Positions 6,175-47,850 of a stretch of DNA of 64,000 nt are shown piece after piece. This DNA comes from an uncultured Verrucomicrobiae bacterium (GTDB taxonomy: Bacteria; Verrucomicrobiota; Verrucomicrobiia; Limisphaerales; Palsa-1400): assembly GCA_963813995.1 (NCBI GenBank), contig CAWFAZ010000086.1, positions 71,973 through 135,972 of the forward strand, in the 5' to 3' direction. How positions within the stretch are numbered: position 1 is the first letter of the stretch; every line of letters starts with the position of its first letter. The translations under genes and the position numbers were made by a program. The notes beneath the pieces were generated by a model. That model was not told where the DNA came from and ran no database searches. It saw nothing but the letters and a program-made list of their open reading frames with translations.

Positions 6175-6296
6175 AAAAATTGATCCTTGTAGTCTCGCGG
6201 GTTTGGCGAGTTCCTAACGGCTGGACTCTATCAAATGCCGGGGCAGAGTCAATTGCCGTTTGTTGTTAATAATTGGCCAAAAATTGCGACTCGACC

Positions 6297-7190: not shown

Positions 7191-7265
7191 GAAATCAGGA
7201 AATCGGTGGGGTGAGACTCCGTCGAACCCTGACTTTTTCTTCACTTCTTAATTCTTACTTCTTAA
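7173..7265. terminator. Perfect 21-bp inverted repeat between convergent genes (possible bidirectional terminator)
   Basis: TTAAGAAGTAAGAATTAAGAA (7173-7193) and its exact reverse complement TTCTTAATTCTTACTTCTTAA (7245-7265). The arms overlap the last codons and stops of the SCO gene and the SOD gene. Confidence 0.5.
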
Positions 7266-8004
7266 ATCTCTCCGCGACGTAATCCCAATTGATGACGTTG
7301 AACCAGGCGGCAATGTAATCGGGCCGGCGATTCTGATACTTCAAATAATACGCGTGCTCCCAAACGTCCAGGCCGAGCAAAGGTTGTTGGCCTGCGCTGA
7401 CGGGCGAGTCCTGATTCGGAGTGGCTTCGATTTTTAAATCGCCGCCGTCCGCAACAAGCCAGGCCCAGCCGCTGCCAAACTGGCCCGCCGCCGCCTTCGC
7501 AAATTGGGTTTTGAACTCAGCGAAGCTGCCGAACTTTTTGTCAATCGCCTTGGACAGTTCACCGACGGGTTCGCCGCCGCCGTTCTTTTTCATCATTTGC
7601 CAGAACATTGAATGGTTGTAATGGCCGCCGCCCTGATTGCGCACGGCGGCGCGAATTTTCTCAGGAACGGCGTTTAAGTCCTTGAGCAAATCCTCAACGG
7701 GCTTCTTTCCGAGATCAGGAAACTCGGCAACAGCCTTGTTCAGATTCGTCACATAAGCGGCATGATGTTTGTCGTGATGAATTTGCATCGTCCGGGCGTC
7801 AATATGCGGTTCAAGGGCATCGAACGCATAAGGCAGCGGCGGCAGAATGTAGGGGCCGCCGGAGGCGCTTGTGACGGCCGGGGCTTGAGCCGGTTGGGCG
7901 TCGGCCATGCGCAGGGGTGACGCGGCCGCATAAGCCACCGAGGCCAGCGCGGTTGTTTTCAGAGCCTGTCTTCGAGTCATCATAAGAATTCCTTTCGTTT
8001 GCAT
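7255..8004 (-). CDS. Fe/Mn superoxide dismutase with twin-arginine (Tat) signal peptide
   Basis: Fe/Mn-SOD motifs are present: [25 protein letters not shown] and [18 protein letters not shown]. The N-terminus [21 protein letters not shown] is Tat-like. The start is ATG 8004 or 7983; the ORF-track extension to 8142 is judged spurious. Confidence 0.9.
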
Positions 8005-8138
8005 TACTTTACCGGATTTCAATCCAGGCGCAACAGAATCTGGCGGCAGGCGCCCGAACGGGGGTGTGAGAAAAATTCTTCGCAATCCCATTCTTGCGGG
8101 AGAGATGTATATGCGGCCCAATAGACTCCTTTTGACTC

Positions 8139-8942
8139 TCATTTCTTAAACGGATTATCTGGATCACCGAGAAACTTCGCAACAGATCGCTTGATCTTTC
8201 CGGCTGCTCGCTTGATGTCATTCGTGAGCAGCCCGGCATTCACACGAAGTTTATCGTAGTCCTTCACAAACTGATACACTCCACCTGAGAGCGCGGTCAC
8301 GACAATCTTAAATGCCAGCGACCCGGATCGTATCTCTTCACACTCGACGCGGACGCCATTTGAGCCAAAACGAAAATCCGCCAGCGGTTGAATCAATCGC
8401 GCCAGTTCGATTTGCAGTCGATTGGCATACTCGGTTGGAAGTTTTCCGGGAGGGCCAAGTTGTATTTCAGGAAAATCCGCGTTGATTTCTGCCGAGAACC
8501 CTCCGGCAGCCTGCGCTCTGGGCGTGACGCCCGCCAAAGTCACGACACATTTTCGCGCGTAAATCGTGTCCGTATTTTCCTGCCAAAGAAGCGCCAATGT
8601 TTCCACCCACTTCAACAACGCCGCTTTTGTCTCATCGGGATTCGTCAGCGGCTTTTCTTGATGCGCAACTCGTGTGTTGCGAAAATCGTTGACGCTCTTG
8701 ATCGCTTCAAAAATGGCCCGCGCACCGGGCAATCGCAGTTCATCGCGAACGGCTTCGAATACTCCAGTCAACGCCGTCGAATCGTTCAGGGCATAGTCAT
8801 AACAGTTGCGCAACAACCCCAGCGGCGACACGCCAGTTTGATATACCAGCGTTTTTCGGAGGTTTCCGCTGAAAAGGGGATCCACCGTCGCCGCCGCATC
8901 CATTTCAATGCAGCAGTTCCACCAGACCCGGTTCTTCCGCAT
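8139..8942 (-). CDS. Hypothetical protein, third gene of the higB/higA-like locus; possible HEPN-like Rx4-6H motif
   Basis: 267-aa ORF. Its ATG (8940-8942) lies 3 nt after the antitoxin stop (TGA 8946-8948). It contains [10 protein letters not shown] (R-x5-H) within a helical-looking N-terminal region. I recognise no other motif. Confidence 0.5.
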
Positions 8943-8945
8943 GGC

Positions 8946-9233
8946 TCAAGCCTGGGTAAAACGCACTTTCAACCCCAGGGAAGACAAAACGGCGTTGAGG
9001 CTCGAAAGACGCGGATTTCCACGACGCGATAGCAGACGATAAAGGCTTTCCCGGTTCAGGTGGCTGGATTTCGCGGCCCGGCCAATTCCACCTTGAGCTT
9101 CAACAACGTCGCGCAGACCCAACAGGAAAACATCAGGACCTTCTTCAAAACAAGCGGTCAGATATTTCGCGGCTTGTTCCGAGTCCTGAAGACGCGGCTT
9201 GAGGATTTCTTCAAATTTCACGGCATTTTTCAT
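8946..9233 (-). CDS. higA: HigA-family addiction-module antidote protein (HTH antitoxin)
   Basis: From ATG 9233: MKNAVKFEEILKPRLQDSEQAAKYLTACFEEGPDVFLLGLRDVVEAQGGIGRAAKSSHLNRESLYRLLSRRGNPRLSSLNAVLSSLGLKVRF. This matches the antidote-protein family pattern (..ReslYr.Ls..gnPrlsTl..vl.aLGl..). Confidence 0.8.
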   Translation of the reverse strand: MKNAVKFEEILKPRLQDSEQAAKYLTACFEEGPDVFLLGLRDVVEAQGGIGRAAKSSHLNRESLYRLLSRRGNPRLSSLNAVLSSLGLKVRFTQA

Positions 9234-9237
9234 ATTC

Positions 9238-9570
9238 TTACTCTCGTTGCTTATAGTCGTGCCAGTATTGTTTGGCGCGCTGAATATCCTTTTCCTGTGT
9301 GCGCTTATCCCCGCCACACAGCAGGATCACCAGCGTCTGACCTTTCTGGGCGAAATACACCCGATACCCCGGACCGTAATCCACGCGCAATTCGGACACC
9401 CCTTCGCCTACGCTCTTGCAGTCGCCCAAATTCCCCCGCCGAACCCGGGCCAGACGGGCGAGCACGCGCGCCACAATGTTTTGATCATCCAGTTCGTCCA
9501 GCTACTCGTTAAAAGGGGTTCGCCCTTCACGCGTTCGATAGGCCAGCAACTCTTTTGGTGTGATCAGCAC
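9238..9570 (-). pseudogene. higB: HigB/RelE-type addiction-module killer gene interrupted by an in-frame TAG
   Basis: The minus-strand reading from GTG 9568-9570 gives VLITPKELLAYRTREGRTPFNE*LDELDDQNIVARVLARLARVRRGNLGDCKSVGEGVSELRVDYGPGYRVYFAQKGQTLVILLCGGDKRTQEKDIQRAKQYW. The stop (TAG, 9502-9504) sits where this family has a conserved Trp (..PF.eWl..L), consistent with TGG to TAG. Confidence 0.7.
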
Positions 9571-9886
9571 CGGGGCAATGTAGTGTAAAAGCTACAGCGG
9601 GTCAATCTTTTTTTTGCCGCTGCCTTTCATCCGCAAAACTTTTTGACAGCGGTTGATCGAGCGTTGCCAGACTGAATCCATGTTGCCTGGCCTCTGCCAA
9701 ACATTCCTGCCATCTGGATTATTTCCCGCAGAACGCAAAGCACGGGAAAAAAGGCCTTTGCCCGCTGAACACGCAGATGGACGCAGATGAAGAATTCTCA
9801 TTCCATATCTGCGTTAATCGGCGTGATCTGCGGGCAAGTCCGGATTCGGTTGCGGCTGGCCGCGCTGGGGTCTTTGTGGCAAAATG

Positions 9887-10098
9887 ATTTCGTGGTTTAC
9901 CCGGTTTTCCATAATCTTTCCGGGCACCCCGAAGAAGGCAGAAGGAAGAAGGCAGAATTAAGCGTAGCGGCGGCTCGGCAGAGCGCCGCACTCACCGGCT
10001 GTCTGCCGACAGCCGCTACGCGCTTCGACTTTTGGCTGTTTTTCAGATTTCTTACTTCTTAAATCGAAATTCTTTTCGGAATCCGTGGTCAAATTCTT
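9887..10098. repeat. Intergenic repeat family, copy A (two conserved blocks split by a 154-nt insert containing an imperfect hairpin)
   Basis: Block 1 at 9887-9926 matches 41659-41698 at 35/40 positions. Block 2 at 10081-10098 (ATCCGTGGTCAAATTCTT) is identical to 41716-41733. The insert carries an imperfect inverted repeat of about 21 bp at 9961-10024. Confidence 0.7.
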
Positions 10099-34865: not shown

Positions 34866-37433
34866 CTACGCCACCCGCTCGAACTCCTTAAGTCGCACTT
34901 GCGATTGCAGATAACCAATCAACGCCTCCCGCTCCTGGGGGCTGAGCTGCGACAGTGAGCCGAAGAGGCTTGCGTCACGAGCGCGCAGTTCAGCGAACCT
35001 GCCTTCCTCCAGCAGCATCCGGCTTTGCTCATCCAGCAGGAAAGCCACGAACACCATGCGCAATTCCCGGTTGTGAGTGGCGCTGGTTTCTTGCGTGGTG
35101 ATGAAACGTTCAAACGCTTCATCCGCAAGCTCGCCGCGCGTCGGGATGTTCGGAGCTAAACCGAACACTCGGGCGAGTATTTCCCGCAAACTCGGCAAGC
35201 GATCCGTTTTGTAAACCTCCTGAAGCTTTGGCAGATTCCAGAATTCTTGAGGCTTCTCGAACAGCAGGCGGCGGATGCGTGTCTCGACCGCGGGCCAGTC
35301 CTCCGCGTCGTACGCTTGCCGCAGAAGAGCGTCACTGGCGACAGCCTCGCTGGCCTGGTGTGCAAAACGCTCGCGATACATTTCGCGGTCAATCCGCATT
35401 CCGAAAAGTCCAACCTCATCACGGATGACAGTGGCCATCGGGTCAGGCGATGTGTTGGTGAAATCCTCAATGCGAATACCTCCCCCGCCGCCATCACCTC
35501 CGCTGCCTTCTTCGGGCGGCCCTTTCGGCAACGACAGCTTCCGGTCGTAATCAAATTCCCCCTCGAAGAACTCGAAGTTGGCGAAGAAGTCGAAGAGGGC
35601 GAAGCTGTCCTTCCTGGCAGTCCTTTGACTTGCGCCCTCGCCATGTTGGAACGTGAACAGCCGCGTCCCACGGCCTTTGATCTGGATGAAATCGGTGGGC
35701 GAAAAAATCGGTCGCGCCAGCGCCACATTTAGCACGTCTTCGCAATCGTAGCCGGTGGTCATCATCCCCACCGTTACGCAAACGCGGGTTCGGCTCGTGT
35801 CGTAATCGCGAAACTCTTCCCCCCGCCACTTCGATTTGCCATTAAGGTTGTTGTTTGCAAAATCAATCGTCATCTGCTGCGCTCCGGCTATCTCTGACGT
35901 GACTTGCACCGCAAACGTCGAACCGGCGGCGTATTCTTTCGGCCAGCGGCGCGTCGCTTCCTCGTTGAGCAATGTCACCAGCTTGGTCGCGTGCTTGCGA
36001 CTGACGGCAAACATGATGGCCTTGCCGGTTTCGCCGGTAACTGGATCGCACTTGGCGTTGTCCAGGAAACAGCGGACAAAGCTCAGGTTGGTTTCATCCG
36101 AGAAAAATCTCCGCTCGTAATCGCGCTTGCCGAAAACAAGTTCGGTCTCCTGGCTCTCCTCGTTGGCCGGCACAGTGACTGCGTAACCTTCGTCGGAAAG
36201 CATTTGCGTGGTGATGTCCGTGCGCGCATCGAGCGTGACGGGATTACAGAGGTAGGGCGGCACATGCTGAACGGCGTTGGGCAGGGTGTAACGGAACGTT
36301 GGCTTGCCGTCATCGCTGCCGAAAGTCCGGTACGTGTCGAGGAGCAGCCGCCGCTCGTATTCGCGTGGATCGTTTTGCCGCGCCTTGTCATCCAAACCCT
36401 TGAGGTAATCCCTGGGTGTCGCGGTGAGGCCGAGTTTTGCGCCGATGAAATACTCAAAGATGGCCCGGTTGTTTCCGCTGATGGTGCGATGCGCCTCGTC
36501 GCTGATAATGAGTTGGAAATCCGTCGGGGCAAACTCATGCAGGAAGCGGTTGCGGGCCGCAAGGCTTTGAATCGTCGTCACCATCACTTGCGCCTGCTTC
36601 CACTCCTCCCGCCGCTGTTTGTAGATGACCGTCTGAATGCCGTCGTTGGCGAGGTAGGCGTTGAAATTCTTCCACGCCTGAGTCTCCAGCTCCAATCGGT
36701 CCACGAGAAACAAAATGCGCGTGGCATTTTCGGTGCGGAGGTACAGCTTGGCGATGGCCGCGCTCAAGAGCGTCTTGCCCGTTCCGGTCGCCATTTCGAA
36801 AAGAAATCGGTGGTTTTGCGGTGTCGCCGCCTTTTGCAGCGCGCGAATGCCTTCAAGCTGGTAATCGCGCAGGAGGCGGATTTTCTTGTTCCCCATCACC
36901 GCCGCGCGATCGGCTGGGGAATACGAAAGCCACGCGGCATCCTGCGAAACGGCAATGTAATTCTCATCCACCGGGACGGCGGCGAGCCGGGTGGAATCGG
37001 GCCGCCACTCTGCCGCCTTCCCCAAGTCTGCTAGCGGCAGGAAACGCGATACCTTGACCGGATTGCCCTGCCGCAGATTCCAGTAGTAATGCACCAGCCC
37101 ATTGCTGAGGAAAATGTGGCTGGCCCCGAGGCTCTCCGCGTAACTGCGCGCCTGCTCCTTGCCGGTGAGCGGGTCAATGCTCTCGCGCTTGGCTTCCGTA
37201 ACTGCCACCGGCCGTTGGTCGGTGTTCAGCAGCACGTAATCCACGAAACCCTGCGGCGCGTGCTCGAAATCATTGCCCAAGTCCTGGCTGGGGGAAAACA
37301 CCCGCCGCGTGACACGGTGCTCGCAGATGATGTTCTCGCGCCGCCCCTGCGCATCAGGCAGGAAACGCCAGCCTGCTTCCTCCAGTAGCTTGTTGATGGT
37401 GATGCGCGCTTGGGCTTCGGATGATCGAATCAT
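34866..37433 (-). CDS. hsdR: Type I restriction enzyme R-subunit-like protein (PD-(D/E)xK nuclease + SF2 helicase + EcoEI_R_C-like tail)
   Basis: The N-terminus is SEAQARITINKLLEEAGWRF...GFVDYVLLNTDQRPVAVTEAKRE (D...E-x-K nuclease pattern). Helicase motif I is EMATGTGKT, motif II is IISDEAHR and motif VI is QIKGRGTR. The ATG at 37431-37433 follows the upstream gene's stop (TGA 37435-37437) by 1 nt. Confidence 0.85.
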   Translation of the reverse strand: MIRSSEAQARITINKLLEEAGWRFLPDAQGRRENIICEHRVTRRVFSPSQDLGNDFEHAPQGFVDYVLLNTDQRPVAVTEAKRESIDPLTGKEQARSYAESLGASHIFLSNGLVHYYWNLRQGNPVKVSRFLPLADLGKAAEWRPDSTRLAAVPVDENYIAVSQDAAWLSYSPADRAAVMGNKKIRLLRDYQLEGIRALQKAATPQNHRFLFEMATGTGKTLLSAAIAKLYLRTENATRILFLVDRLELETQAWKNFNAYLANDGIQTVIYKQRREEWKQAQVMVTTIQSLAARNRFLHEFAPTDFQLIISDEAHRTISGNNRAIFEYFIGAKLGLTATPRDYLKGLDDKARQNDPREYERRLLLDTYRTFGSDDGKPTFRYTLPNAVQHVPPYLCNPVTLDARTDITTQMLSDEGYAVTVPANEESQETELVFGKRDYERRFFSDETNLSFVRCFLDNAKCDPVTGETGKAIMFAVSRKHATKLVTLLNEEATRRWPKEYAAGSTFAVQVTSEIAGAQQMTIDFANNNLNGKSKWRGEEFRDYDTSRTRVCVTVGMMTTGYDCEDVLNVALARPIFSPTDFIQIKGRGTRLFTFQHGEGASQRTARKDSFALFDFFANFEFFEGEFDYDRKLSLPKGPPEEGSGGDGGGGGIRIEDFTNTSPDPMATVIRDEVGLFGMRIDREMYRERFAHQASEAVASDALLRQAYDAEDWPAVETRIRRLLFEKPQEFWNLPKLQEVYKTDRLPSLREILARVFGLAPNIPTRGELADEAFERFITTQETSATHNRELRMVFVAFLLDEQSRMLLEEGRFAELRARDASLFGSLSQLSPQEREALIGYLQSQVRLKEFERVA

Positions 37434-37434
37434 A

Positions 37435-38259
37435 TCAAGCCACCCCCAATTCAAGTTGGTGTTGATGCGGCGGCGCGAACACCCCAACGATTATCCACGG
37501 ATTCGGCGCGAAGCCATGAAATTGCTGCGTCGTGCCAAGGAAGAAATGCAAATCGCGTTTGCCGAACTCATCCAGATACTTGGCTTTTACTTTTTCCAGC
37601 GCCACCGACTCCTCGCCATATCGCCGGAAGCAATTCCAATAAAGCTGGCCGCACTCCCAATCCAAAACTTGCATGGTGCTTTTCCGGCCGGCTACATCCT
37701 CAATTTGATACGAGAAGGCGTATGGCAGCTTGGGAATGACTTTGAACGCCTGCCGCCAGGACTCCTCGGCAAAGAGTTCAGTTTGCCGGTTCATATTCCG
37801 CATTTGTGCCAGCTTGTTTTCATCCCACTCGCGGTCGTCATCTTCCCAAATGAAACCACGAATCTTAGCCGGCTTGAAAACCGCCAAAGACAGCCGGTTT
37901 TCCTTCGCGCCGACGAAGAGCGGCTCAAGCTGTTCGTAAACCGTGGCCCGCTTCAACAGCAATTCACGCCGTTCCCGCCAGTTGTCTTCCGTTCCCATGT
38001 GGCCGCTTGGGAGCAGCTTGGTGGGGTCGGCGGGGTGGTGCGTTTCCGGGCGGATGTCCGAACGGCTTCGGATGAAATCAGCTTCGATCCAATCGAACTT
38101 CTTATATTGCTCCTGCTCCTCCAAGCGTCGGAACGGCACGGGATAAATCCGCATCCACGACCCATCGGCGCGCACGCCGGCTGTGCAAACGGTCTCGCCG
38201 TATTTTCGCGACAGCGTCGGGTAGGTCTTGACCGTGATTAGCACGCGCTCCTTGGGCAT
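37435..38259 (-). CDS. Hypothetical protein, no recognisable family (passenger gene 2 in the R-M operon)
   Basis: 274 codons starting at MPKERVLITVKTYPTLSRKYGETVCTAGVRADGSWMRIYPVPF. It lies 11 nt after the DUF488 gene's stop, and its own stop lies 1 nt before the hsdR start. It has a sensible amino-acid composition and the same strand and spacing as the rest of the operon. Confidence 0.6.
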   Translation of the reverse strand: MPKERVLITVKTYPTLSRKYGETVCTAGVRADGSWMRIYPVPFRRLEEQEQYKKFDWIEADFIRSRSDIRPETHHPADPTKLLPSGHMGTEDNWRERRELLLKRATVYEQLEPLFVGAKENRLSLAVFKPAKIRGFIWEDDDREWDENKLAQMRNMNRQTELFAEESWRQAFKVIPKLPYAFSYQIEDVAGRKSTMQVLDWECGQLYWNCFRRYGEESVALEKVKAKYLDEFGKRDLHFFLGTTQQFHGFAPNPWIIVGVFAPPHQHQLELGVA

Positions 38260-38270
38260 AACCCTTGTCC

Positions 38271-39164
38271 CTACAAATGCACCACCGCCGAATCCTTTCC
38301 CGCGCCCTGCGCCAGCGCTTCCGCCACACAATGCCGGTGGCATTGCTGCGGCAATAATTCAAAACACGTCAACGCCACCCGATCGCCTTCCCCGATCCAG
38401 CCGCGGATTTTCGCCAGCGCTTCGCTCTGCTTGGGCAGGCTCTTGCGCTCATACTCGACAAACAACGCATCGTAATCCGCCTGTGTCTTCAGGTCGCGGC
38501 GCTCCCCCGAATCAATGCCCAGCTCCGGCAAATGCTCGTAACGAATCCCCACGCCTTCGCACACCTTGCTCAGCGTGCTTTTGGAAAATCCATACTTGCG
38601 GCTCAATGGATTCCGGCGCACGTCACACAACAGCGTCACGGAATTCTTGAGCAGCAGATTCAAATACGCCTCCAGACTCCGGCCTTCATAGCCGATCGTC
38701 ACCAGTCCGGGCTGACCTTTTTCCGGATGCGCCTCAATCACGCGCTGGCGCGACCCGGCATCCGGCAACACTTTTTCCACGATCTCACTGCGCGTCGCGT
38801 AGTAGGGGAACTTCCGGTATTGCTCGGCAATGAGCGCATTCCCCCGGAGCCTGGCATGGTCGCGGCAAAACCGCGCCACCATCAGCGGCATCACCGCCTC
38901 CTTGCGGGCTGTCTGGCGTCCTGCCTCCGTGAGTTGCCACTGGTTTTCGTCCGCCGTCAGGAGGCCGGCCACCGCCAGCCGCCGCTTGTCCGCGTAGGAC
39001 GTGAACGAAAACGCCCCAAACTTGTAGGGCACGAATTCGTAGGTGGGGGATTCCTCGCATTGCTGCGTGTAAAGAAACAGCAGCTTCTGGAAATCAGTGT
39101 TCGCCACCGGCCCGCCAAGGGCGTCCAGCATCGTTAATAGCAGGCGTTGGCGTTCAAATAACAT
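38271..39164 (-). CDS. DUF488-domain protein with an extra N-terminal domain of about 125 aa (passenger gene 1 in the R-M operon)
   Basis: The C-terminal half VTIGYEGRSLEAYLNLLLKNSVTLLCDVRRNPLSRKYGFSKSTL...ALTCFELLPQQCHRHCVAEAL matches my recollection of DUF488. The N-terminal part FQKLLFLYTQ...YEFVPYKFGAFSFTSYADKRRL is an additional domain. Confidence 0.7.
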   Translation of the reverse strand: MLFERQRLLLTMLDALGGPVANTDFQKLLFLYTQQCEESPTYEFVPYKFGAFSFTSYADKRRLAVAGLLTADENQWQLTEAGRQTARKEAVMPLMVARFCRDHARLRGNALIAEQYRKFPYYATRSEIVEKVLPDAGSRQRVIEAHPEKGQPGLVTIGYEGRSLEAYLNLLLKNSVTLLCDVRRNPLSRKYGFSKSTLSKVCEGVGIRYEHLPELGIDSGERRDLKTQADYDALFVEYERKSLPKQSEALAKIRGWIGEGDRVALTCFELLPQQCHRHCVAEALAQGAGKDSAVVHL

Positions 39165-39204: not shown

Positions 39205-39363
39205 CTAATTCATTCCCCGGCCCCCGCACCATTCCCCCCGGTCGAGGACGCATTGGATTTTGGCCTCGAAGCGGGGGATCAGCGACCGCACCGCCCCCAT
39301 CTGTGCCGCCTCCGCGTCCAGTTCGGCCAGAAGAAACCTTAGCTCAGTATCCAACAATTTCAT
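39205..39363 (-). CDS. Possible 52-aa ORF translationally coupled to the methylase gene
   Basis: It falls below the 60-aa ORF-track cutoff. The minus strand reads ATGAAATTG...: the ATG (39361-39363) overlaps the methylase TGA (39360-39362) as ATGA, and GGAGGA lies 9 nt upstream. The product is MKLLDTELRFLLAELDAEAAQMGAVRSLIPRFEAKIQCVLDRGEWCGGRGMN, and the stop is TAG at 39205-39207. Confidence 0.3.
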   Translation of the reverse strand: MKLLDTELRFLLAELDAEAAQMGAVRSLIPRFEAKIQCVLDRGEWCGGRGMN

Positions 39364-41372
39364 TTTTCTTCGTCCTCCGGCCCAAGAATGGTTTCAACAT
39401 GTGTTTTCTTTGCTGCGGTTTTCAACAGTGATTCAGCTGTCTCGAAGACTTTCTCCGCCAAACGTAAGAACTCCGGGTTGGTCGCGCTCCGTTTCAGGCT
39501 CAACGCTATTTCTTCAATTTGCTTTGCGTGCTCCTCGGCTAAGTAAACCTCTATTATTTCCTTTTGTATTTCCGGCTTCGGAACGGGAATTACAAGATTC
39601 AGCAGTTGCGTGCTGCTCATCGTGATGTTGGTTGCACCAGACATCAATGGAACGAGGATCTGGTATCGCAGACGACTTAGTAGTATAAACAAATAACGCG
39701 GAATTACCTCTTTCTCGTTTTTTGAAAAGAGCGCGCACATTGTCGTAGCTATAGCAAACTTCCCTTCTTGGTAATGGAGGCGTTTGATGTCAGCCTTGCC
39801 GTGTCCGGCAGACGAAACCAGCGGAATACAAACCGCATTACCTTCGAAGTCCCAGTGGTCTGATGTTTTTCTCTCTTCTGCAGGGACAACGAGAGCGTAA
39901 TCGCCCGGCGGCGTTGCCATGTTGGGCGAGAGACCATCTTTAACGTCACAGATGTCGCCCAGCCTACGGAGCGGAATGTCTGGTCGGTGTGTGATGCGGT
40001 TTGGGAGGTCATACCAGCGGCCAAGAAGATTCCGTTCCTCATCTTGCTTAATCGTGTCCTTGGAAACCGTGAATGCCATTACTCCCTTCTTCCGACGTTT
40101 CCACGGGCGGTGCTGGCCGACTGCCTGGCTGAAGCCCTTTACAACCTCCAGTGCAGCGGGAAGTTCATTGCCTTCAATTGGCAGGCGGGTGTCGCTTTGC
40201 GTGAAGCCGTCATTTTCAATTTCGACAAACAGAATCTCGCGTGATTGTCGGGAAAGAGATTTGTCCGCCAGCAAGATATGAGTCTTCACGCTGGCGTAGG
40301 GTTTGAAGACTCCGTGCGGTAGCGTGATGTCGGCGAGCAACATGTCCTCATCCACGAGCATTCTGCGAAGTTTTGTCTGTGCGCCTTGCTCATTGGACAT
40401 GATGCCTTCGGGAACGATTACCCCGGCGCGACCGTTGGCGTTGAGATGTTCAAGCATGTAGTCCAAGAAGAGTACCTCGGCCTTGCGGCTTGCGACGCCA
40501 AAGCGGGTGTGCGGGGTCACGCCGCCTTTGGGAGTCATGAACGGCGGGTTGGCAAGGATGAGGTCGGCCTTCTCGTGCCAGCGGGCATCGTTGCTCAGGG
40601 TGTCGTAGATGTGGATGGCGGGGTCGGGAAAGCCGTGGAGGAAGAGGTTCACCTTGCTCAGCTTCACCATGAGGTCGGTGATGTCGTAGCCGGCGAGATT
40701 GCCATAGAGTTTCTGGCGCTGGTCGTGCGTGAGCCGGTCGCCGGAAATGTTCGAGCCGGGCGAGGTGCTTTGCGCCAGGATGTGTTTGTAGGCGGAAACA
40801 AGGAATCCACCCGTGCCGCACGCGGGATCGAGGATTTTGTCGCCCGGCTGCGGGTCAAGGCAGGCGACGATGAAATCAATGATGTGGCGCGGGGTGCGGA
40901 ATTGGCCGTTCTCGCCCTGTGTGCCCATGCACTGGAGGAGATATTCGAAGGCGTTGCCGAGTTCCTCGCTGTGCGAGTAGGCGAAGCCGTTCACCTCCGT
41001 AAGGAACATCGTGAGGATGCGCCCGTCGCGGAATTTCAGGAAGGCATTGCGGAAGATGTCGCGGAAGAGGCCGGGCAGGTGCGCGGCTTTCTTTGGATTT
41101 CCCAGCGCCTCGATTCCTTCGGAAAAGAGCGTGACGCGCTGCTCGGCGGAGACGGTTTGCGGAAGGAGATTGCGCCAGCGATATTTTGCGAGGTCGCCGA
41201 TGAAGAAGGAGCGTTTGCCACCGAGCTTCACGGATTCCTCGTCGAGGTCGTCCATGAACTTGTAGATCAGTGCGAGCGTGATGAGTTCGACCTGGTCGGA
41301 GGGCAGCGGGAGCTTGCCAACGAGTACGTCGCGGCAGGCATCAATGCGGCGTTTGGTTTCAGAGGTAAGCAT
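39360..41372 (-). CDS. hsdM: N6-adenine DNA methyltransferase (HsdM-like) fused to a single HsdS-type target-recognition domain
   Basis: The HsdM_N-like N-terminus is IDACRDVLVGKLPLPSDQVELITLALIYKFMDD. The SAM motif is ILDPACGTGGFLV and the catalytic motif is LILANPPFMTPKGG. The C-terminal region of about 240 aa (LRRLGDICDVKDGLSPN...VIPRYLFILLSRLRYQILVPLMSGATNITMSSTQLLNLVIPVPKPEIQKEII) follows the type I S-subunit TRD pattern. Confidence 0.85.
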   Translation of the reverse strand: MLTSETKRRIDACRDVLVGKLPLPSDQVELITLALIYKFMDDLDEESVKLGGKRSFFIGDLAKYRWRNLLPQTVSAEQRVTLFSEGIEALGNPKKAAHLPGLFRDIFRNAFLKFRDGRILTMFLTEVNGFAYSHSEELGNAFEYLLQCMGTQGENGQFRTPRHIIDFIVACLDPQPGDKILDPACGTGGFLVSAYKHILAQSTSPGSNISGDRLTHDQRQKLYGNLAGYDITDLMVKLSKVNLFLHGFPDPAIHIYDTLSNDARWHEKADLILANPPFMTPKGGVTPHTRFGVASRKAEVLFLDYMLEHLNANGRAGVIVPEGIMSNEQGAQTKLRRMLVDEDMLLADITLPHGVFKPYASVKTHILLADKSLSRQSREILFVEIENDGFTQSDTRLPIEGNELPAALEVVKGFSQAVGQHRPWKRRKKGVMAFTVSKDTIKQDEERNLLGRWYDLPNRITHRPDIPLRRLGDICDVKDGLSPNMATPPGDYALVVPAEERKTSDHWDFEGNAVCIPLVSSAGHGKADIKRLHYQEGKFAIATTMCALFSKNEKEVIPRYLFILLSRLRYQILVPLMSGATNITMSSTQLLNLVIPVPKPEIQKEIIEVYLAEEHAKQIEEIALSLKRSATNPEFLRLAEKVFETAESLLKTAAKKTHVETILGPEDEEK

Positions 41373-42155: not shown

Positions 42156-43583
42156 TTGAAAAGCAAACTTGGAATCATCATCGGCTCCCTGGCGGTGGTG
42201 TTATTGTGCCAGCCTGCGGCGCGGGCGGATAATCTTTCCCAAATCCCGGCGCGAACGTCCCCGGCATGGCTGCGCGACGGCGTGGTTTACGAAATCTTCC
42301 CGCGTGATTTTTCCCCCGCCGGAAATCTCGACGGGGTCATCGCGAGCCTGGATGAATTGAAGGATTTGGGCGTGACCATCCTGTGGACCATGCCGATCCA
42401 TCCGATTGGCGAAAAGTGCCGCAAGGGCGAGTTTGGCAGCCCGTATTCCATCAAGGATTTTTACGCCGTGGATCCCCATTACGGAACGGTGGACGATTTC
42501 AAACGGCTTGTCGCCGAAGCCCACAAGCGCGGTTTGAAGGTCATCATGGATATCGTGGCCAACCATACGTCGTGGGACAACGCGATGATGCAGCAGCACC
42601 CGGAATATTACCTGCAAGACGCGCAAGGCAAAATCATCCCGCCGGATCCTGGCTGGTTGGATGTCGCGGGGTTGAATTATGCGAACCCGGCGCTGCGCCA
42701 ATACATGATTGCCATGATGAAGTATTGGGTGCAGACGTGCAACGTGGATGGTTTCCGCTGCGACGTCGCCTGGAATGTGCCGACGGATTTCTGGGAAGCG
42801 GCGCGCGCCCAACTCGAAAGCGTCAAGCCGGACATCGTGTTGCTGGCCGAGGCGAGCAAGCCCGATCTGCTGGTGAAGGCATTTGACGTTGATTACGCCT
42901 GGCCGCTGATGGGCACGCTCAATGATGTGCTGATCAAAGGCGCGCCGGCCTCCAAGCTGCGCGCTTCGTGGGAGGAGAGCCTGCGGCAGTTCCCGCGCGA
43001 TTCGCTCCACATGCGTCTCACGGACGATCACGATGAACCGCGCGCGGTCTCGCGCTTTGGTGTGCGCGGCGCGCTGGCCGGCTCGGCGCTGATGTTCACG
43101 CTGGACGGCGTGCCGCTGCTTTACAACGGGATGGAAGTGGGTGACGCTACGGAATCCGGCGACCCTGCGCTGTTCGACAGGCTGCCTATTTTCTGGTCGC
43201 CCAAGGACCGCCCGCCTTTGCGCAGGATTTATCACGACCTGATCCAGTTGCGCAAAGAGAACGCCCCCTTCCGCAACGGCCGCGTCATTTGGCTGCACAA
43301 TTCAAACGAAGGCAGCCTCGTCACGTTCAAGCGCGCGGATGAGACGAATGAATTCGTGGTGGTGATCAATTTCTCGAACCGCCCCATCCACGGGCAGGTG
43401 GAAGTCACCAACGGCGGGGATTTCAAGCCGGTGCGGATTGCCGGAATGCCCCAGGTTCCGAACCAGGATTTTCCATCGGTTCATTTGGGAGGTTTTGACT
43501 GGCGCATCTATCAGCGCAGTCTGCCGGTCGCGCGGCATACCCCTGCGGACACAAGGCCGGTCCAGATTGGCCTGGCGCACTGA
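42156..43583 (+). CDS. Secreted GH13 alpha-amylase-family enzyme
   Basis: TTG start and signal peptide MKSKLGIIIGSLAVVLLCQPAARA. The GH13 blocks are VVYEIFPRDFSPAGNLDGV...LGVTILWTMPIHPIG, KVIMDIVANHTS, DGFRCDVAWNVP, VLLAEA and LTDDHDEPR. Confidence 0.85.
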   Translation: MKSKLGIIIGSLAVVLLCQPAARADNLSQIPARTSPAWLRDGVVYEIFPRDFSPAGNLDGVIASLDELKDLGVTILWTMPIHPIGEKCRKGEFGSPYSIKDFYAVDPHYGTVDDFKRLVAEAHKRGLKVIMDIVANHTSWDNAMMQQHPEYYLQDAQGKIIPPDPGWLDVAGLNYANPALRQYMIAMMKYWVQTCNVDGFRCDVAWNVPTDFWEAARAQLESVKPDIVLLAEASKPDLLVKAFDVDYAWPLMGTLNDVLIKGAPASKLRASWEESLRQFPRDSLHMRLTDDHDEPRAVSRFGVRGALAGSALMFTLDGVPLLYNGMEVGDATESGDPALFDRLPIFWSPKDRPPLRRIYHDLIQLRKENAPFRNGRVIWLHNSNEGSLVTFKRADETNEFVVVINFSNRPIHGQVEVTNGGDFKPVRIAGMPQVPNQDFPSVHLGGFDWRIYQRSLPVARHTPADTRPVQIGLAH

Positions 43584-43610
43584 AACAAAAGCCCGCTGGT
43601 TTATGACACC

Positions 43611-44999
43611 ATGAGCGCAGTGCGAGATGAACCCGCCCCCCGGCTAAAAACCGCCGGGCCGAAGCCACGGTTGAGTTTCTGGCAAATCTGGAACATGAGC
43701 TTCGGCTTTCTCGGCATCCAGTTCGGCTGGGGTCTGCAGATGGCGAACATGAGCTCCATTTACCGGTACCTCGGGGCGAACTACGATTCCCTGCCCATCT
43801 TGTGGCTGGCCGCGCCCGTCACCGGCTTGCTCATCCAACCCTTGGTCGGCCAATCCAGCGACCGCATCTGGACCCGGCTGGGCCGGCGGCGCCCGTTTAT
43901 TCTGGGCGGCGCGATTCTCGCCTCGCTGGCTCTGGTCTTGATGCCTAATTGCCCGTCGGTTTGGATGGCGGCGGGACTGCTCTGGGTGCTGGATGGAACC
44001 ATCAATGCCAGCATGCAGCCTTTCCGGGCGTTGGTGGCGGACAATCTTCCCGAAGAACAAAACTCGCAAGGCTTTGCCATCCAATCCCTGTTCATTGGGT
44101 TGGGCGGCACCATTGCATCAGCGTTGCCTTGGATGATGACCAACTGGTTTGGAGTTGCCTCCGAAGGCGCGGGGCAGGGACATGTGCCCGCTTCCGTCAG
44201 GCTCTCGTTTTACATCGGCGCGGCGGCGTGCATGGGCGCGGTGCTCTGGACGGTTTTTACCACCTCGGAATATCCGCCTTCCGAATCGGAACTGGCCGCC
44301 ATCCGCATCAGGAAATTCGACTGGACTCTTGGGTTGGGCGACATCTATGCGCTGGTTTTTCATTTGCCCCGGCGGATGTGGGAGCTGGGGTTGGTTCAGT
44401 TCTTTACCTGGGTCGGAATGTTCACGCTTTGGGTTTATTTTCCCCCGGCTGTTGCGAAAAACATATTTCATGCGGCGACAGGCTCGGTGGCAATGGAAGC
44501 TTCCGGTTCCTGGTCGGGCTTCTGTTTTGCCGCGTATAATGCCGTTTGCTTCATTTTTTCATTCGTGCTGCTGTGGGGCACGAAATACACCGGCCCCAAG
44601 CTGATGCACATTCTCTGTCTGGCGGCGGGTGCGCTGGGGCTGGCGTCCGTTCCTCTGGCTTCAGACAAGTATCACCTGTTGATCGCCATGACCGCGGTCG
44701 GCATCGCGTGGGCGAGCATCCTTTCCATGCCTTACGCCATGCTGGTGCCCGCGCTGCCGAAGGAAAAAGTCGGGGTCATGATGGGGATGTTCAATCTGTT
44801 CATCGTGCTGCCGCAGATTGCCGCTTCCAGCCTGCTCGGTTACATCTTGAAAAATTATCTGCACAGCGAACCCATGAATGCCCTCGTCCTGGGCGGGGCG
44901 AGCATGGGACTGGCCGCCGTGCTGACGCTGTTGGTGGTGACCTTCAAGCGTCTTGAGCGTTGCCCTGCTCCTGCAGATGCTGGCACAGTGGGTGGATGA
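43611..44999 (+). CDS. MFS transporter, SLC45/GPH-like (putative maltose/malto-oligosaccharide:H+ symporter)
   Basis: 462-aa polytopic ORF. The N-terminus is FWQIWNMSFGFLGIQFGWGLQMANMSSIY...GQSSDRIWTRLGRRRPFILGG, as in SLC45-type sugar transporters. It sits between an amylase gene and malQ. Confidence 0.8.
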   Translation: MSAVRDEPAPRLKTAGPKPRLSFWQIWNMSFGFLGIQFGWGLQMANMSSIYRYLGANYDSLPILWLAAPVTGLLIQPLVGQSSDRIWTRLGRRRPFILGGAILASLALVLMPNCPSVWMAAGLLWVLDGTINASMQPFRALVADNLPEEQNSQGFAIQSLFIGLGGTIASALPWMMTNWFGVASEGAGQGHVPASVRLSFYIGAAACMGAVLWTVFTTSEYPPSESELAAIRIRKFDWTLGLGDIYALVFHLPRRMWELGLVQFFTWVGMFTLWVYFPPAVAKNIFHAATGSVAMEASGSWSGFCFAAYNAVCFIFSFVLLWGTKYTGPKLMHILCLAAGALGLASVPLASDKYHLLIAMTAVGIAWASILSMPYAMLVPALPKEKVGVMMGMFNLFIVLPQIAASSLLGYILKNYLHSEPMNALVLGGASMGLAAVLTLLVVTFKRLERCPAPADAGTVGG

Positions 45000-45027
45000 A
45001 AAGTCCGCGTCCGCCTGATCCCCGCCC

Positions 45028-47733
45028 ATGAAAATCACCATTCGATTGCGTTACCATACGCATTTTGGCCAGGCGCTGTTTCTTTGTGGCGATCACAAAT
45101 GGTTTGGCGGCGGCCAGCAGGAGAGCGCGCTGCCTTTGCATTATGTGAATGAGGAATTCTGGGAGGCGGCGCTCGACCTGCCGGACACGCGCCCGCCCAA
45201 AGCGCCGGTGAGTTATTACTTCCTTTTGCGCAATCAGGACGGCTCAGTGATTGAAGATTTCGGCGGCGACCGAAAACTTGATCTTGCCGGCCTCACCCGC
45301 GGCCACACCGTTATCATGGATTCATGGAACGACTTGGGCGCGGTCGAAAATGTTTTCTTCACCGAACCGTTTAAAAATGTTTTGCTCCGGACGGAAAAAG
45401 AGCCGGTCAGCGCCAAATCGCCCGTCGTCGCCACGCATTCGTTCACGGTCAAAGCGCCGTTGCTGCCGAAGGGACAGACCATCTGCCTGCTGGGCGGCGC
45501 CATCACAGTGGGCGGTTGGAACCAGGCCGCGCCGGTATTGCTGCGACGCTGCGCGGAGAACGGATGCTTCAGTGTGCAACTTGATTTCGCAAGGGAACCC
45601 TTTCCCGTCGCTTACAAATACGGCGTCTATGATATCGAAAGAAATGCGTTTGTCCGGTATGAGGACGGCGCGAATCGCCTGCTCGCAGAAGCTGCCCCCC
45701 CGGACGTGCAGGTGATCGTCAACGACGGCTTCGCGCATTTGCCAGGCGCGCCGTGGCGGGGCGCGGGCGTGGCCATGCCGGTATTCAGCCTGCGCAGCGC
45801 AAGAAGTTTTGGCGTGGGTGAATTTTTGGATTTGCCACTGCTGGCGGATTGGGCGCGCCGCGCCGGACTCAAGCTGATTCAAATCCTGCCGGTAAACGAC
45901 ACGAGCGCCACGCACACCTGGATGGACTCGTATCCGTACGCCGGGATTTCCGCGTTTGCGCTGCATCCGCTCTATCTGAATCTTGACCGCCTGGCCGGAA
46001 CCGGCGCCCGGCATTTGCTCAAAAGCCTGGCCGGCCGGCGCGAACAACTCAACGCGCTGGCAACGGTGGATTACGAGGCGGTGATGAAAGCCAAGCTGGC
46101 GTTCGTGCGGGAGATTTTTCCGGCGCAACGGGAGGAAACATTTGCCGGCGCGGAGTATCGGAAGTTTTTCTCGCAAAACAAAAACTGGCTCGCCCCGTAC
46201 GCGGCCTTTTGTTTTTTGCGCGACAAGTTCGGGACGGCGGATTTCAACCAATGGCCGGAACATCGCGTCTATGACGCGAAGAAGATCAGCGCCCTGGCTG
46301 CGCGGGATGCCGCCGCGGGCGATGAGATGGCTTTGCATTGCTTCATCCAGTTTCATTTGCATCTCCAACTGCGCGAAGCGGCCGATGATGCGCATGCCCG
46401 GGGCTTGATTCTCAAGGGCGACATTGCCATCGGCGTCCATCCCCACAGCGCGGAGGTCTGGCAGCAGCCGGCGTTGTTTCACACCGACATGCAGGCCGGC
46501 GCGCCGCCGGACGCCTTCGCCGCCAAAGGCCAGAATTGGGGCTTCCCCACTTACAACTGGCCGCGCATGAAGCAGGACGGCTTTGATTGGTGGAAGCGGC
46601 GCTTCGCGCAGATGAGTTGTTATTTTGATGCCTTTCGCATCGACCACATTCTCGGCTTCTTTCGCATCTGGAGCATTCCGCGGAACGCCGTCGAAGGCAT
46701 TCCCGGTTATTTCGTGCCCGCCCTGCCGGTGCAGGCCGGCGAATTCGCCGCGCGCGGCATCGCCTTCAATTACGAACGATTCACCCGGCCATTCATCAAC
46801 GACGCCGTGTTGCGCGAAATATTCGCCGGGCGCGCCGGGAGCGTGAAGCGCGAATTCCTGAATCCCGCCTCGCGCGGAACGTATTCGCTAAAACCGGAAT
46901 TTGCGACGCAACAGGACGTGGAAAGACATTTTGCGTTGTTGGAAGAAGACAGGCGCGAAGCGCGGCTAAAGGAGGGGCTGTTTGATTTGATCAGCAACGT
47001 GCTGCTGATCGAGGTTCCGGGCAGCGCGGGCGCGGCATTTCATTTCCGGCTGGGCATGGAGCAAACGGCCTCCTTCCGGCAACTGGATCAGGCCACCCGG
47101 GCGCGGCTGAAGGATTTGTATGTGGATTATTTTTTCCGGCGGCAGGACGGGTGTTGGAGGCGGGAGGCGCTGCAGAAATTGCCCGCCCTGAAACGCGTCA
47201 CGAACATGCTCATCTGCGGCGAAGATTTGGGGATGGTCCCGGCCTGTGTGCCGGAGGTGATGAAACAACTGGGCCTGTTGAGCCTGGAAATTCAGCGCAT
47301 GCCCAAGGACTTGCATCTGGATTTTTCGCGTCCGGCGGACGCTCCTTATCTGAGCGTCGTCACGCCCTCGACGCATGACATGAGCACGATTCGCGGCTGG
47401 TGGCTGGAGGACAAAAAGCTCACGCAAAAATTTTTCAACCAGGAGTTGCGGCGCCCCGGCGCGCCGCCGTCCCAATGCGAGCCGTGGGTCAACCGGGAAA
47501 TCATCCGCCAGCATCTGGATTCGCCGGCGATGTGGAGCATTTTTCAATTGCAGGACCTGCTGGGCATGGACGGCGCGCTGCGCCGCCCCGACGTGGACGC
47601 GGAACGCATCAATGTGCCGGCCATTCCCAAGTATTACTGGCGCCACCGCATGTCTCTGCCATTGGAGGCGCTGGTCCGGGCGGAGAATTTTAACCGGCTG
47701 GTGGAAAATCTGGTCCGGCAGAGCGGGCGCTGA
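45028..47733 (+). CDS. malQ: 4-alpha-glucanotransferase (GH77, DPE2-like long form with N-terminal CBM20-type domains)
   Basis: 901 aa. The GH77 blocks are GAGVAMPVFSLRSARSFGVGEFLDL, KLIQILPVNDTS, ILKGDIAIGV, FRIDHILGFFRIW, LICGEDLGMVP and TPSTHDMSTIRGWW. Confidence 0.9.
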   Translation: MKITIRLRYHTHFGQALFLCGDHKWFGGGQQESALPLHYVNEEFWEAALDLPDTRPPKAPVSYYFLLRNQDGSVIEDFGGDRKLDLAGLTRGHTVIMDSWNDLGAVENVFFTEPFKNVLLRTEKEPVSAKSPVVATHSFTVKAPLLPKGQTICLLGGAITVGGWNQAAPVLLRRCAENGCFSVQLDFAREPFPVAYKYGVYDIERNAFVRYEDGANRLLAEAAPPDVQVIVNDGFAHLPGAPWRGAGVAMPVFSLRSARSFGVGEFLDLPLLADWARRAGLKLIQILPVNDTSATHTWMDSYPYAGISAFALHPLYLNLDRLAGTGARHLLKSLAGRREQLNALATVDYEAVMKAKLAFVREIFPAQREETFAGAEYRKFFSQNKNWLAPYAAFCFLRDKFGTADFNQWPEHRVYDAKKISALAARDAAAGDEMALHCFIQFHLHLQLREAADDAHARGLILKGDIAIGVHPHSAEVWQQPALFHTDMQAGAPPDAFAAKGQNWGFPTYNWPRMKQDGFDWWKRRFAQMSCYFDAFRIDHILGFFRIWSIPRNAVEGIPGYFVPALPVQAGEFAARGIAFNYERFTRPFINDAVLREIFAGRAGSVKREFLNPASRGTYSLKPEFATQQDVERHFALLEEDRREARLKEGLFDLISNVLLIEVPGSAGAAFHFRLGMEQTASFRQLDQATRARLKDLYVDYFFRRQDGCWRREALQKLPALKRVTNMLICGEDLGMVPACVPEVMKQLGLLSLEIQRMPKDLHLDFSRPADAPYLSVVTPSTHDMSTIRGWWLEDKKLTQKFFNQELRRPGAPPSQCEPWVNREIIRQHLDSPAMWSIFQLQDLLGMDGALRRPDVDAERINVPAIPKYYWRHRMSLPLEALVRAENFNRLVENLVRQSGR

Positions 47734-47760
47734 TTTTCTTTGGTCATTAGTTTAAACAAA

Positions 47761-47850
47761 TGGCGGAAGGGGTGGGATTCGAACCCACGTTGGGGTTTCC
47801 CCCAAGCCTGATTTCGAGTCAGGTACATTCAACCACTCTGCCACCCTTCC
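47761..47850 (-). tRNA. tRNA-Ser (anticodon CGA), long variable arm, CCA encoded
   Basis: The reverse complement is GGAAGGGTGGCAGAGTGGTTGAATGTACCTGACTCGAAATCAGGCTTGGGGGAAACCCCAACGTGGGTTCGAATCCCACCCCTTCCGCCA. The acceptor stem is GGAAGGG/CCCTTCC, the anticodon stem is CCTGA/TCAGG with loop CTCGAAA, and the T arm is GTGGG-TTCGAATC-CCCAC. Confidence 0.93.

Follow-up and report, generated by a model that had tools for sequence, protein, structure and literature searches.

The anticodon nuclease PrrC is kept latent within a type I restriction-modification (R-M) operon, where it occupies the slot between hsdS and hsdR (the prr locus of PrrC-EcoprrI). It is almost exclusively found embedded in such systems, and genes embedded in type I R-M, BREX and DISARM systems have furnished a set of 145 untested phage-defence candidates (PDCs; Payne et al., bioRxiv 10.1101/2024.01.29.577857). 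One of these candidates, PDC-M19, is the subject of the present analysis. Its two genes, here called A and B, lie side by side on the reverse strand of a 64,000-nucleotide stretch of DNA (the window) from an uncultured Verrucomicrobiae bacterium (GenBank assembly GCA_963813995.1, contig CAWFAZ010000086.1, positions 71,973 to 135,972 of the forward strand). Gene A (38271..39164, minus strand) opens with ATG, encodes 297 residues and matches the PADLOC model PDC-M19A (PDLC04505) at E 9.3e-105, with residues 3-296 aligned to profile positions 2-293 of 294. Gene B (37435..38259, minus strand) encodes 274 residues from a start 11 nucleotides past the stop of A, and matches PDC-M19B (PDLC04508) at E 4e-106 over profile positions 1-268 of 269. 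Both models are matched end to end, the genes are adjacent and co-oriented, and the pair is embedded in a type I R-M operon, as PDCs were defined; to judge from its sequence, the locus represents this already catalogued candidate family in its typical form, and no difference from it was seen. PDC-M19 itself carries no domain annotation beyond DUF488 and is named in no paper found by literature search. The tentative proposal made here is that B is an effector directed at DNA, which A neutralises or regulates in a manner akin to DarG, and that the two genes form a back-up defence within the R-M operon.

Two described families offer the nearest comparison for the N-terminal part of A. DarG of the DarTG system joins an enzyme domain to a toxin-binding C-terminal domain (CTD), and the DarT-DarG complex of Mycobacterium tuberculosis has been resolved (7YK3), its 189-residue chains, named "DNA ADP-ribosyl glycohydrolase", being the DarT-binding fragment of DarG. 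A 2026 paper describes this DarT-binding domain as a homologue of Panacea (DUF4065) proteins. Their most conserved features are a central helix and a Gly-containing strand, with a GPV motif in β2 (Kurata et al. 2022, PMC8832971), and in the two-gene PanAT operons the antitoxin gene more commonly comes first (PMC8832971), as A does in the A-B pair. The N-terminal domain of A (38715..39164, minus strand; residues 1 to about 150) has its nearest known relatives here. The preliminary description of this locus, made from the letters of the sequence, had placed the open reading frame correctly, with every peptide it quoted present in the translation, and had recognised an additional domain ahead of DUF488. 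That domain proves to be conserved: used by itself as the query against 1.84 billion cluster representatives, it returned 792 matches at E<=1e-3, of which 317 reached E<=1e-10, and DUF488 follows it C-terminally in 56 of the 60 listed matches long enough to be complete. R5 and L10 are conserved in a set of 43 diverse homologues, which supports the 297-residue start.

Neither single sequences nor profiles of this N-terminal region reached threshold with any entry in Pfam, NCBIfam or the PDB sequences. An AlphaFold2 model of A built from the 43 homologues (predicted local distance difference test score, pLDDT, 95.9; predicted template modelling score, pTM, 0.92) shows a central helix at residues 22-36 (DFQKLLFLYTQ) and a β-hairpin at residues 44-53 (FVPYKFGAFS), followed by a winged-helix-like segment at residues 54-80 and a helical bundle at residues 93-144; F44, P46, G50, S53 and P120 are invariant in the homologues. 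The top PDB match of this model in Foldseek is a chain of the DarG fragment, 7yk3_D (E 2e-3, prob 1.0, 183 columns of a 187-residue chain, target TM score 0.50). At the level of sequence, 7yk3_B is one of only two PDB matches of the N-terminal profile, at a non-significant E of 1.1, so that the likeness to a DarG-type toxin-binding domain is found in the fold. The helix and hairpin nevertheless line up, with DFQKLLFL...YEFVPYKFGAFS in the N-terminal domain against EIQKLMYF...LDFTPGRYGPYS in the DarG chain, and, in the profile alignment, lsntdfqklLflftqea..psYeFvPykfGafS against ISHLEIQKLMY-FANEADPDLALDFTPGRYGPYS; the shared motif may be written QKL(L/M)(F/Y)...F-x-P-x-x-x-G-x-x-S.

The resemblance to Panacea, which the preliminary description had proposed as a Panacea/SocA-like look, stands only as a likeness of fold or remote homology and does not stand as membership of PF13274. 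The window protein has no PF13274 match at E <= 10, and the profile is reached below threshold (E <= 1) in 6 of the 43 relatives, with a best score of 17.4 bits, the cut-off being 25.7, and a score of 13.1 bits for the consensus. In the consensus and in two of four members the alignment is colinear, placing query residues of about 44-117 on profile positions 24-110 of 113 (E 0.009-0.19), and the other two members align only with the C-terminal part of the profile. When the N-terminal domain was aligned with 40 PF13274 proteins gathered from the Listeria phage B025 gp27 seed, hhalign gave P 0.017 over 98 colinear columns, albeit at a low probability of 2.6%, compared with P 0.11-0.9 over 1-30 columns for eight reversed or unrelated controls. 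The Panacea helix KLQKLLYF aligns with DFQKLLFL and the glycine of GPV with G50, the P and V being replaced (G-A-F-S). The Panacea profile failed to retrieve DarG among PDB sequences, and the link between Panacea and DarG therefore rests on the 2026 paper and on the N-terminal profile. The winged-helix-like insert at residues 54-80 accounts for weak matches to HemN_C and HTH_45 and for fold matches to PadR and OhrR. On the predicted structure, then, the N-terminal domain belongs to the DarG-CTD/Panacea fold neighbourhood, with DarG nearest, the sequence evidence alone being insufficient. The preliminary description had held that its reading would fall if this half resembled neither Panacea nor winged helix-turn-helix domains; the fold match to 7yk3_D speaks for the resemblance, whereas all sequence matches remain below threshold.

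The likeness to both families comes with clear differences. Like DarG, A combines an enzyme domain with a DarG-CTD-type domain and has a partner gene that depends on it, but its two domains come in the opposite order, its enzyme part is a DUF488 domain of phosphatase-like fold with no match to Macro, and the putative neutraliser gene comes first. B, for its part, shows no likeness to DarT/DUF4433, and neither an ADP-ribosyltransferase nor DarT appears among its Foldseek matches. The N-terminal domain appears to share with Panacea/SocA the conserved central helix followed by a small β-sheet with a conserved Gly, over about 100 colinear columns, yet it scores below the Pfam cut-off, replaces GPV with G-(A/C/P)-(F/Y)-S and bears the extra winged-helix-like insert. 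Unlike Panacea antitoxins, A is also fused to an enzyme, and it is paired with one fixed partner family rather than with many toxins.

The relationship between A and B was followed through loci seeded with A (80 genome loci) and through an independent set seeded with B (80 metagenome loci), genes in these related loci being called with an open reading frame caller weighted by GC content at third codon positions, and same-strand neighbours being scanned with Pfam. An intact B directly follows A in 52 of the 69 A-seeded loci with enough downstream sequence. It is absent, truncated or replaced in the other 17, in all of which A keeps all 20 of its key residues. Conversely, among approximately 60 informative B-seeded loci, 58 carry a full-length A right before B, the A of one more is N-truncated, and in another the partner is a protein made up of DUF488 only; a B lacking a DUF488 gene was not encountered (0 of ~60). 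This asymmetry, with A found without B but B not without DUF488 (Fisher p = 9e-6), is the pattern that a pair of toxin (B) and antitoxin (A) would show, and it argues against DUF488 as the toxic moiety. The suggestion in the preliminary description that DUF488 has a toxin-like role accordingly fits the genomics poorly.

Individual loci illustrate how the place of B may be filled or left empty. In L035 (8925-9622), a VapB-like protein and a PIN protein (VapBC) replace B between an intact A and hsdR, and in L001 (3555-4892) a 274-residue protein without a Pfam match, together with a PIN protein, does so, again beside an intact A. In L060, hsdR follows directly after A, which is the only gene of the cassette. 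An additional reading frame of 141 residues lies between A and B in L131 (3569-3994), where hsdR comes after B. On the same strand directly upstream of A-B, three contigs (L081, at 6244-9903, L082 and L083) encode a 1219-residue protein without a Pfam match, with a PIN toxin pair nearby; in that lineage it could represent a third member of the cassette. In L135 (3387-4816), the homologue of B begins 6 nucleotides after a DUF488-only protein of about 150 residues that shares 35% identity with the C-terminal half of A and has no DarG-like domain. This locus and a shorter PADLOC M19A model indicate that the DUF488 enzyme is the constant partner of B, with the DarG-like domain usual but dispensable.

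The DUF488 domain of A (38295..38708, minus strand; residues 153-290) was correctly called in the preliminary description. It passes the Pfam gathering cut-off for PF04343 with 89.8 bits against 22.2 (E 2.7e-25), the envelope spanning residues 164-284 and covering profile positions 2-121 of 121. In the model this half adopts a Rossmannoid fold resembling Cys-dependent phosphatases, with Foldseek matches to DUSP19 (4d3q_B, prob 0.97), SsoPTP (7mpc, 0.93) and a tetrapyrrole-methylase domain (3hh1_D, 0.95), along with DUSP1, DUSP12, MKP5 and diphthine-type methylase domains. Matches in the viral library BFVD comprise DUF488, DUF4326 and phosphatases of poxviruses and giant viruses, and DUF4326 and DUF488-N3a are weaker relatives of the domain. 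Fifteen residues of this half are invariant in the 43 homologues (G158, Y159, D181, V182, R183, S188, Y209, G216, R222, Y238, C267, E269, C275, H276 and R277). They include the DUF488 hallmarks GYE, DVR, (T)C-x-E and CHR, and G158, Y159, D181, V182, R183, C267, E269, C275, H276 and R277 are also kept in the 17 loci that lack an intact B. The putative active-site loop is C267-F-E269-x5-C275-H276-R277 (38334..38366, minus strand, as read from the codons). In the model, the strand formed by residues 262-267 ends at C267 and the helix of residues 277-287 opens with R277. The loop is P-loop-like with a C-x9-R spacing, not C-x5-R, and the second Cys lies two residues before the Arg. On the strength of the model, the DUF488 half is assigned to a Cys-dependent-phosphatase-like fold of the kind that defines the rhodanese-phosphatase superfamily. 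A Cys/His metal site around QQCHRHC, which the preliminary description had put forward, was considered and rejected as unlikely because H278 and C279 vary among the homologues, only C275-H276-R277 being invariant.

The statement that DUF488 has no established function holds experimentally. Computationally, Burroughs and Aravind reportedly placed the family in the rhodanese-phosphatase superfamily in 2023 and are said to have predicted roles in DNA-end processing for its clade; the gene pair, moreover, already stood in PADLOC as PDC-M19. A 2024 preprint notes that there is no literature on YeaO, the DUF488 member of Escherichia coli. Typical DUF488 proteins are single-domain, whereas the subfamily of A adds the 150-residue N-terminal domain and the partner B. 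This long architecture, regarded at first as unusual, is in fact fixed and widespread: the full-length search returned 6673 matches, of which the best 120 share 72-93% identity and are nearly all of similar length, and A also matches phrog_14939 (E 1.7e-52). In phage and plasmid collections full-length A was not found, the matches there being DUF488-only proteins that align with the C-terminal half of A only; such proteins occur widely on both plasmids and phages, encoded by ordinary small genes.

The partner protein B has no relative in Pfam, NCBIfam or PDB sequences by single-sequence or profile search, without a Pfam match even at E <= 5, and matches phrog_25907 at E 3.5e-63. Its start at Met29 of the longest open reading frame is backed by alignments of its homologues. 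The AlphaFold2 model is moderate (pLDDT 75.7, pTM 0.78), its quality probably limited by the 28 sequences at 68-84% identity from which it was built. Its Foldseek matches are weak without exception (E >= 0.012); OB-fold nucleic-acid binders, including S12 and CSD, make up many of the top ones, and the matches that span most of its length are the tandem-OB single-stranded DNA binders CTC1 of CST, Teb1, TEBP-alpha, Pot1 and RPA. Three homologues of B (P0288, P0292 and P0299) are extended at the C-terminus by an Mrr_cat nuclease (E 1.3e-28) that retains the D...ExK motif. It is from the resemblance of the model to tandem-OB proteins, together with the Mrr-type PD-(D/E)xK nuclease of these copies, that we infer B to be DNA-directed. 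The fusions share the reader-plus-nuclease layout of type IV Mrr-family enzymes, with B placed N-terminal to Mrr_cat, but B in the window has no nuclease domain and B is not a known reader domain. One such fusion, of 433 residues, belongs to a stand-alone pair in L089 (7095-9302; also L090 and L091), located beside an Unstab_antitox-type toxin-antitoxin pair among polysaccharide-synthesis genes; these are the loci of P0292, and no R-M genes lie near them. An apparent fusion of B to HsdR in L016 was rejected as an artefact of taking the longest open reading frame, the two genes being separate and abutting.

The surroundings of the pair in other genomes link it to R-M systems and, more broadly, to defence. 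Gene clustering places type I R-M genes in 29 of 78 A-seeded loci, typically in the order M, S, sometimes another embedded system, A, B and R, and about one third of the copies of the pair sit between hsdS and hsdR. Upstream on the same strand, the recurrent families of the A-seeded loci are Methylase_S (13 of 79), N6_Mtase (7 of 79) and the ABC ATPases AAA_21/AAA_15 (6 of 79), and downstream they are HsdR domains (12 of 55) and PIN (2 of 55); nearly all other neighbouring families are singletons. The B-seeded set agrees, with HsdR downstream in 12 of 38 loci, nine of these within 400 nucleotides, and HsdM/S upstream in 10 of 36. The preliminary description had allowed that the long form of A might be common in non-defence contexts, such as next to metabolic genes; the only neighbours that recur, however, are of R-M or defence type. 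Copies away from R-M genes stand at unrelated places, as expected of an inserted module.

Other defence genes are found embedded just upstream of A-B, namely a Shedu SduA (L014, 6780-7877) and an OLD-like TOPRIM ATPase (L055, 2685-4607), and large AAA_15/AAA_21 ABC ATPases occupy the same position in L015 (4394-7696), L016 (5138-7672) and L025 (2809-5535). Judged by these arrangements, the slot between hsdS and hsdR behaves as a probable cargo site. The A-seeded loci span Verrucomicrobiota, Nitrospirota, Acidobacteriota, Myxococcota, Gemmatimonadota, Proteobacteria, Lentisphaerota, Synergistota, Chloroflexota and others at 57-85% identity, and this degree of identity between phyla, combined with a patchy distribution over at least ten of them, implies that the pair has probably been transferred horizontally.

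Taken together with the domain assignments, these patterns suggest how the pair might work. A would hold B in a harmless state through binding, through an enzymatic activity that reverses or forestalls what B does to nucleic acid, or through both, and the enzymatic part could consist of removing a phosphate-linked group from nucleic acid. Such logic would be that of a type II/IV toxin-antitoxin system, like DarTG. Infection by a phage, possibly through inhibition of the surrounding type I enzyme, would release B to attack DNA as a second line of defence, so that the cassette could act autonomously or as a back-up, as with PrrC. The comparison with PrrC extends to the hsdS-hsdR slot and to a back-up logic that is plausible for both, but neither A nor B has an ABC-ATPase or anticodon-nuclease domain, A-B consists of two genes, and many of its copies are not embedded in R-M systems. 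That A restrains a DNA-directed B as part of such a back-up defence comes close to being probable, without quite reaching it. A more specific form is distinctly less likely: here A-B would be a DarTG-like system of reversible nucleic-acid modification, in which B, as a new tandem-OB-like enzyme or DNA-targeting toxin, marks or attacks (single-stranded) DNA, the DUF488 of A, standing in for the macrodomain of DarG, erases or pre-empts the mark, and the DarG-CTD/Panacea domain docks on B.

Several observations weigh against the proposal that A restrains B in a DarG-like way. About two thirds of the A-B copies are not beside R-M genes. The DUF488-only partner in L135 and the shorter PADLOC M19A model indicate that the N-terminal domain is not indispensable to the relationship between the two genes, and relaxed constraint on this domain, sought in the loci without B, was not seen there, the ratio of N- to C-terminal identity being 0.81 versus 0.79. 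The missing or truncated copies of B come from metagenome-assembled genomes, and some could be assembly errors. The likeness to DarG and Panacea is sub-threshold in sequence, with a Foldseek E of only 2e-3 and a low hhalign probability, and the B model is only moderately confident, with every fold match at E >= 0.012. The possibility that the N-terminal domain acts as an acidic mimic of single-stranded DNA was also rejected, since the domain is basic (isoelectric point 8.9).

Among the alternatives, the pair might instead serve restriction itself, with B targeting or loading a nuclease (HsdR or the fused Mrr) onto particular DNA and A processing DNA ends or regulating restriction. The single nucleotide between B and hsdR in the window, the abutting genes in relatives and the nine of 38 B-seeded loci with HsdR within 400 nucleotides would all suit such a role, as would the Mrr nuclease on B in P0288, P0292 and P0299, the loci of P0292 having no HsdR gene nearby, and the DNA-end processing reportedly predicted for the clade of DUF488. 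About two thirds of the pairs, however, have neither a nearby R-M gene nor a nuclease fusion, and Shedu, ABC ATPases, OLD-like proteins and VapBC share the slot, sometimes beside A-B. Because unrelated systems occupy the same slot, cargo fits better than subunits, and a role within the restriction enzyme appears unlikely.

Doubtful to a somewhat greater degree is the version contained in the preliminary description, by which the DUF488 of A is the toxic or nucleic-acid-attacking effector, its N-terminal domain a neutraliser or sensor fused in cis, as in CapRel, and B a sensor or accessory. This arrangement would agree with the prediction of both domains of A as one rigid body (pTM 0.92), with the nearly constant fusion of the N-terminal domain to DUF488, with the invariant enzyme-like site and with the embedding of the gene in R-M systems. 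It is harder to reconcile with an A that stays intact in 17 of 69 loci without an intact B, including L060, where it is the sole cassette gene beside hsdR, and with a B that never occurs without a DUF488 gene; DUF488-only proteins are, moreover, ordinary small genes on plasmids and in phages, and it is B, not A, that has acquired a nuclease fusion. A housekeeping or repair role, for instance as a nucleotide or nucleic-acid phosphatase with a single-stranded DNA-binding protein that lies near R-M genes by chance, is improbable, for although some copies sit among polysaccharide or metabolic genes and E. coli YeaO has no known defence role, the pair is patchy over at least ten phyla at 57-85% identity in a manner that points to horizontal transfer, only R-M and defence-type genes recur as its neighbours, copies adjoin toxin-antitoxin pairs and PIN toxins, and B decays often.

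The proposal that A neutralises or regulates B matters chiefly for DUF488, a large family without an experimentally known function, on which the subfamily of A offers a handle through its partner gene, the toxin-antitoxin-like dependency between the two, the nuclease fusion, which points to DNA as the target, and the DarG-like domain, which suggests how A and B interact. Were the DarTG-like reversible modification true, it would provide the first biochemical function for DUF488, including E. coli YeaO, and would link Panacea-type domains to enzyme-bearing antitoxins in R-M operons. Should A-B turn out to guard type I restriction, the PrrC principle would have a second instance, assembled from unrelated components. 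As far as the literature searched shows, the assignment of the N-terminal domain to the DarG-CTD/Panacea type, the dependency asymmetry and the fusion of B to Mrr are new.

The R-M operon that hosts the pair, whose presence the preliminary description had rightly recognised, runs entirely on the minus strand in the order hsdMS, a 52-residue reading frame, A, an 11-nucleotide spacer, B, a 1-nucleotide spacer and hsdR, and so unites M, S and R functions, with one target-recognition domain only. The hsdM-hsdS fusion upstream (39360..41372) matches N6_Mtase (E 7.3e-50, residues 136-445), Methylase_S (E 4.3e-10, residues 469-608) and the PADLOC model MTase_I (E 2.2e-90). It combines M and S functions in one protein of 670 residues with a single target-recognition domain, where a separate HsdM and an HsdS with two such domains are usual, and also weakly matches the mad2/MAD5 models of MADS. 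Downstream, hsdR (34866..37433) begins with an ATG 1 nucleotide past the stop of B and encodes 855 residues with matches to ResIII (E 9e-36), HSDR_N_2 and PADLOC REase_I (E 4.1e-52); this call was taken from locus L088, in which B is 100% identical.

The 52-residue reading frame (39205..39363, minus strand) overlaps the stop of hsdMS (ATGA). Its homologue in L007 is the C-terminal tail of HsdMS, read there in frame, so that in the window this tail of the specificity subunit has been split off; matching regions occur in L001, L043 and L102. An A-rich run (GAAGAAAAATGAAA) adjoins the split, and the arrangement is 100% identical in two independent assemblies (L087 and L088). It could be a frameshift, a case of phase variation or a genuine small subunit.

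Two long reading frames run antisense to the pair, one of 201 residues over A (38532..39137, plus strand) and one of 322 residues over B (37273..38241, plus strand); they are read as probable by-products of GC-rich coding DNA, not as genes. Directly downstream of hsdR, the segment 30377..34821 (minus strand) encodes a sensor histidine kinase of 1241 residues, with Reg_prop β-propeller repeats, Y_Y_Y and HisKA_3, and a LuxR-type response regulator. On the other side of the operon, a starch/glycogen utilisation cluster (42156..47850, plus strand) comprises an alpha-amylase, an MFS transporter and a CBM20 4-alpha-glucanotransferase, and is followed by a tRNA-Ser(CGA) gene at 47761..47850 on the minus strand.

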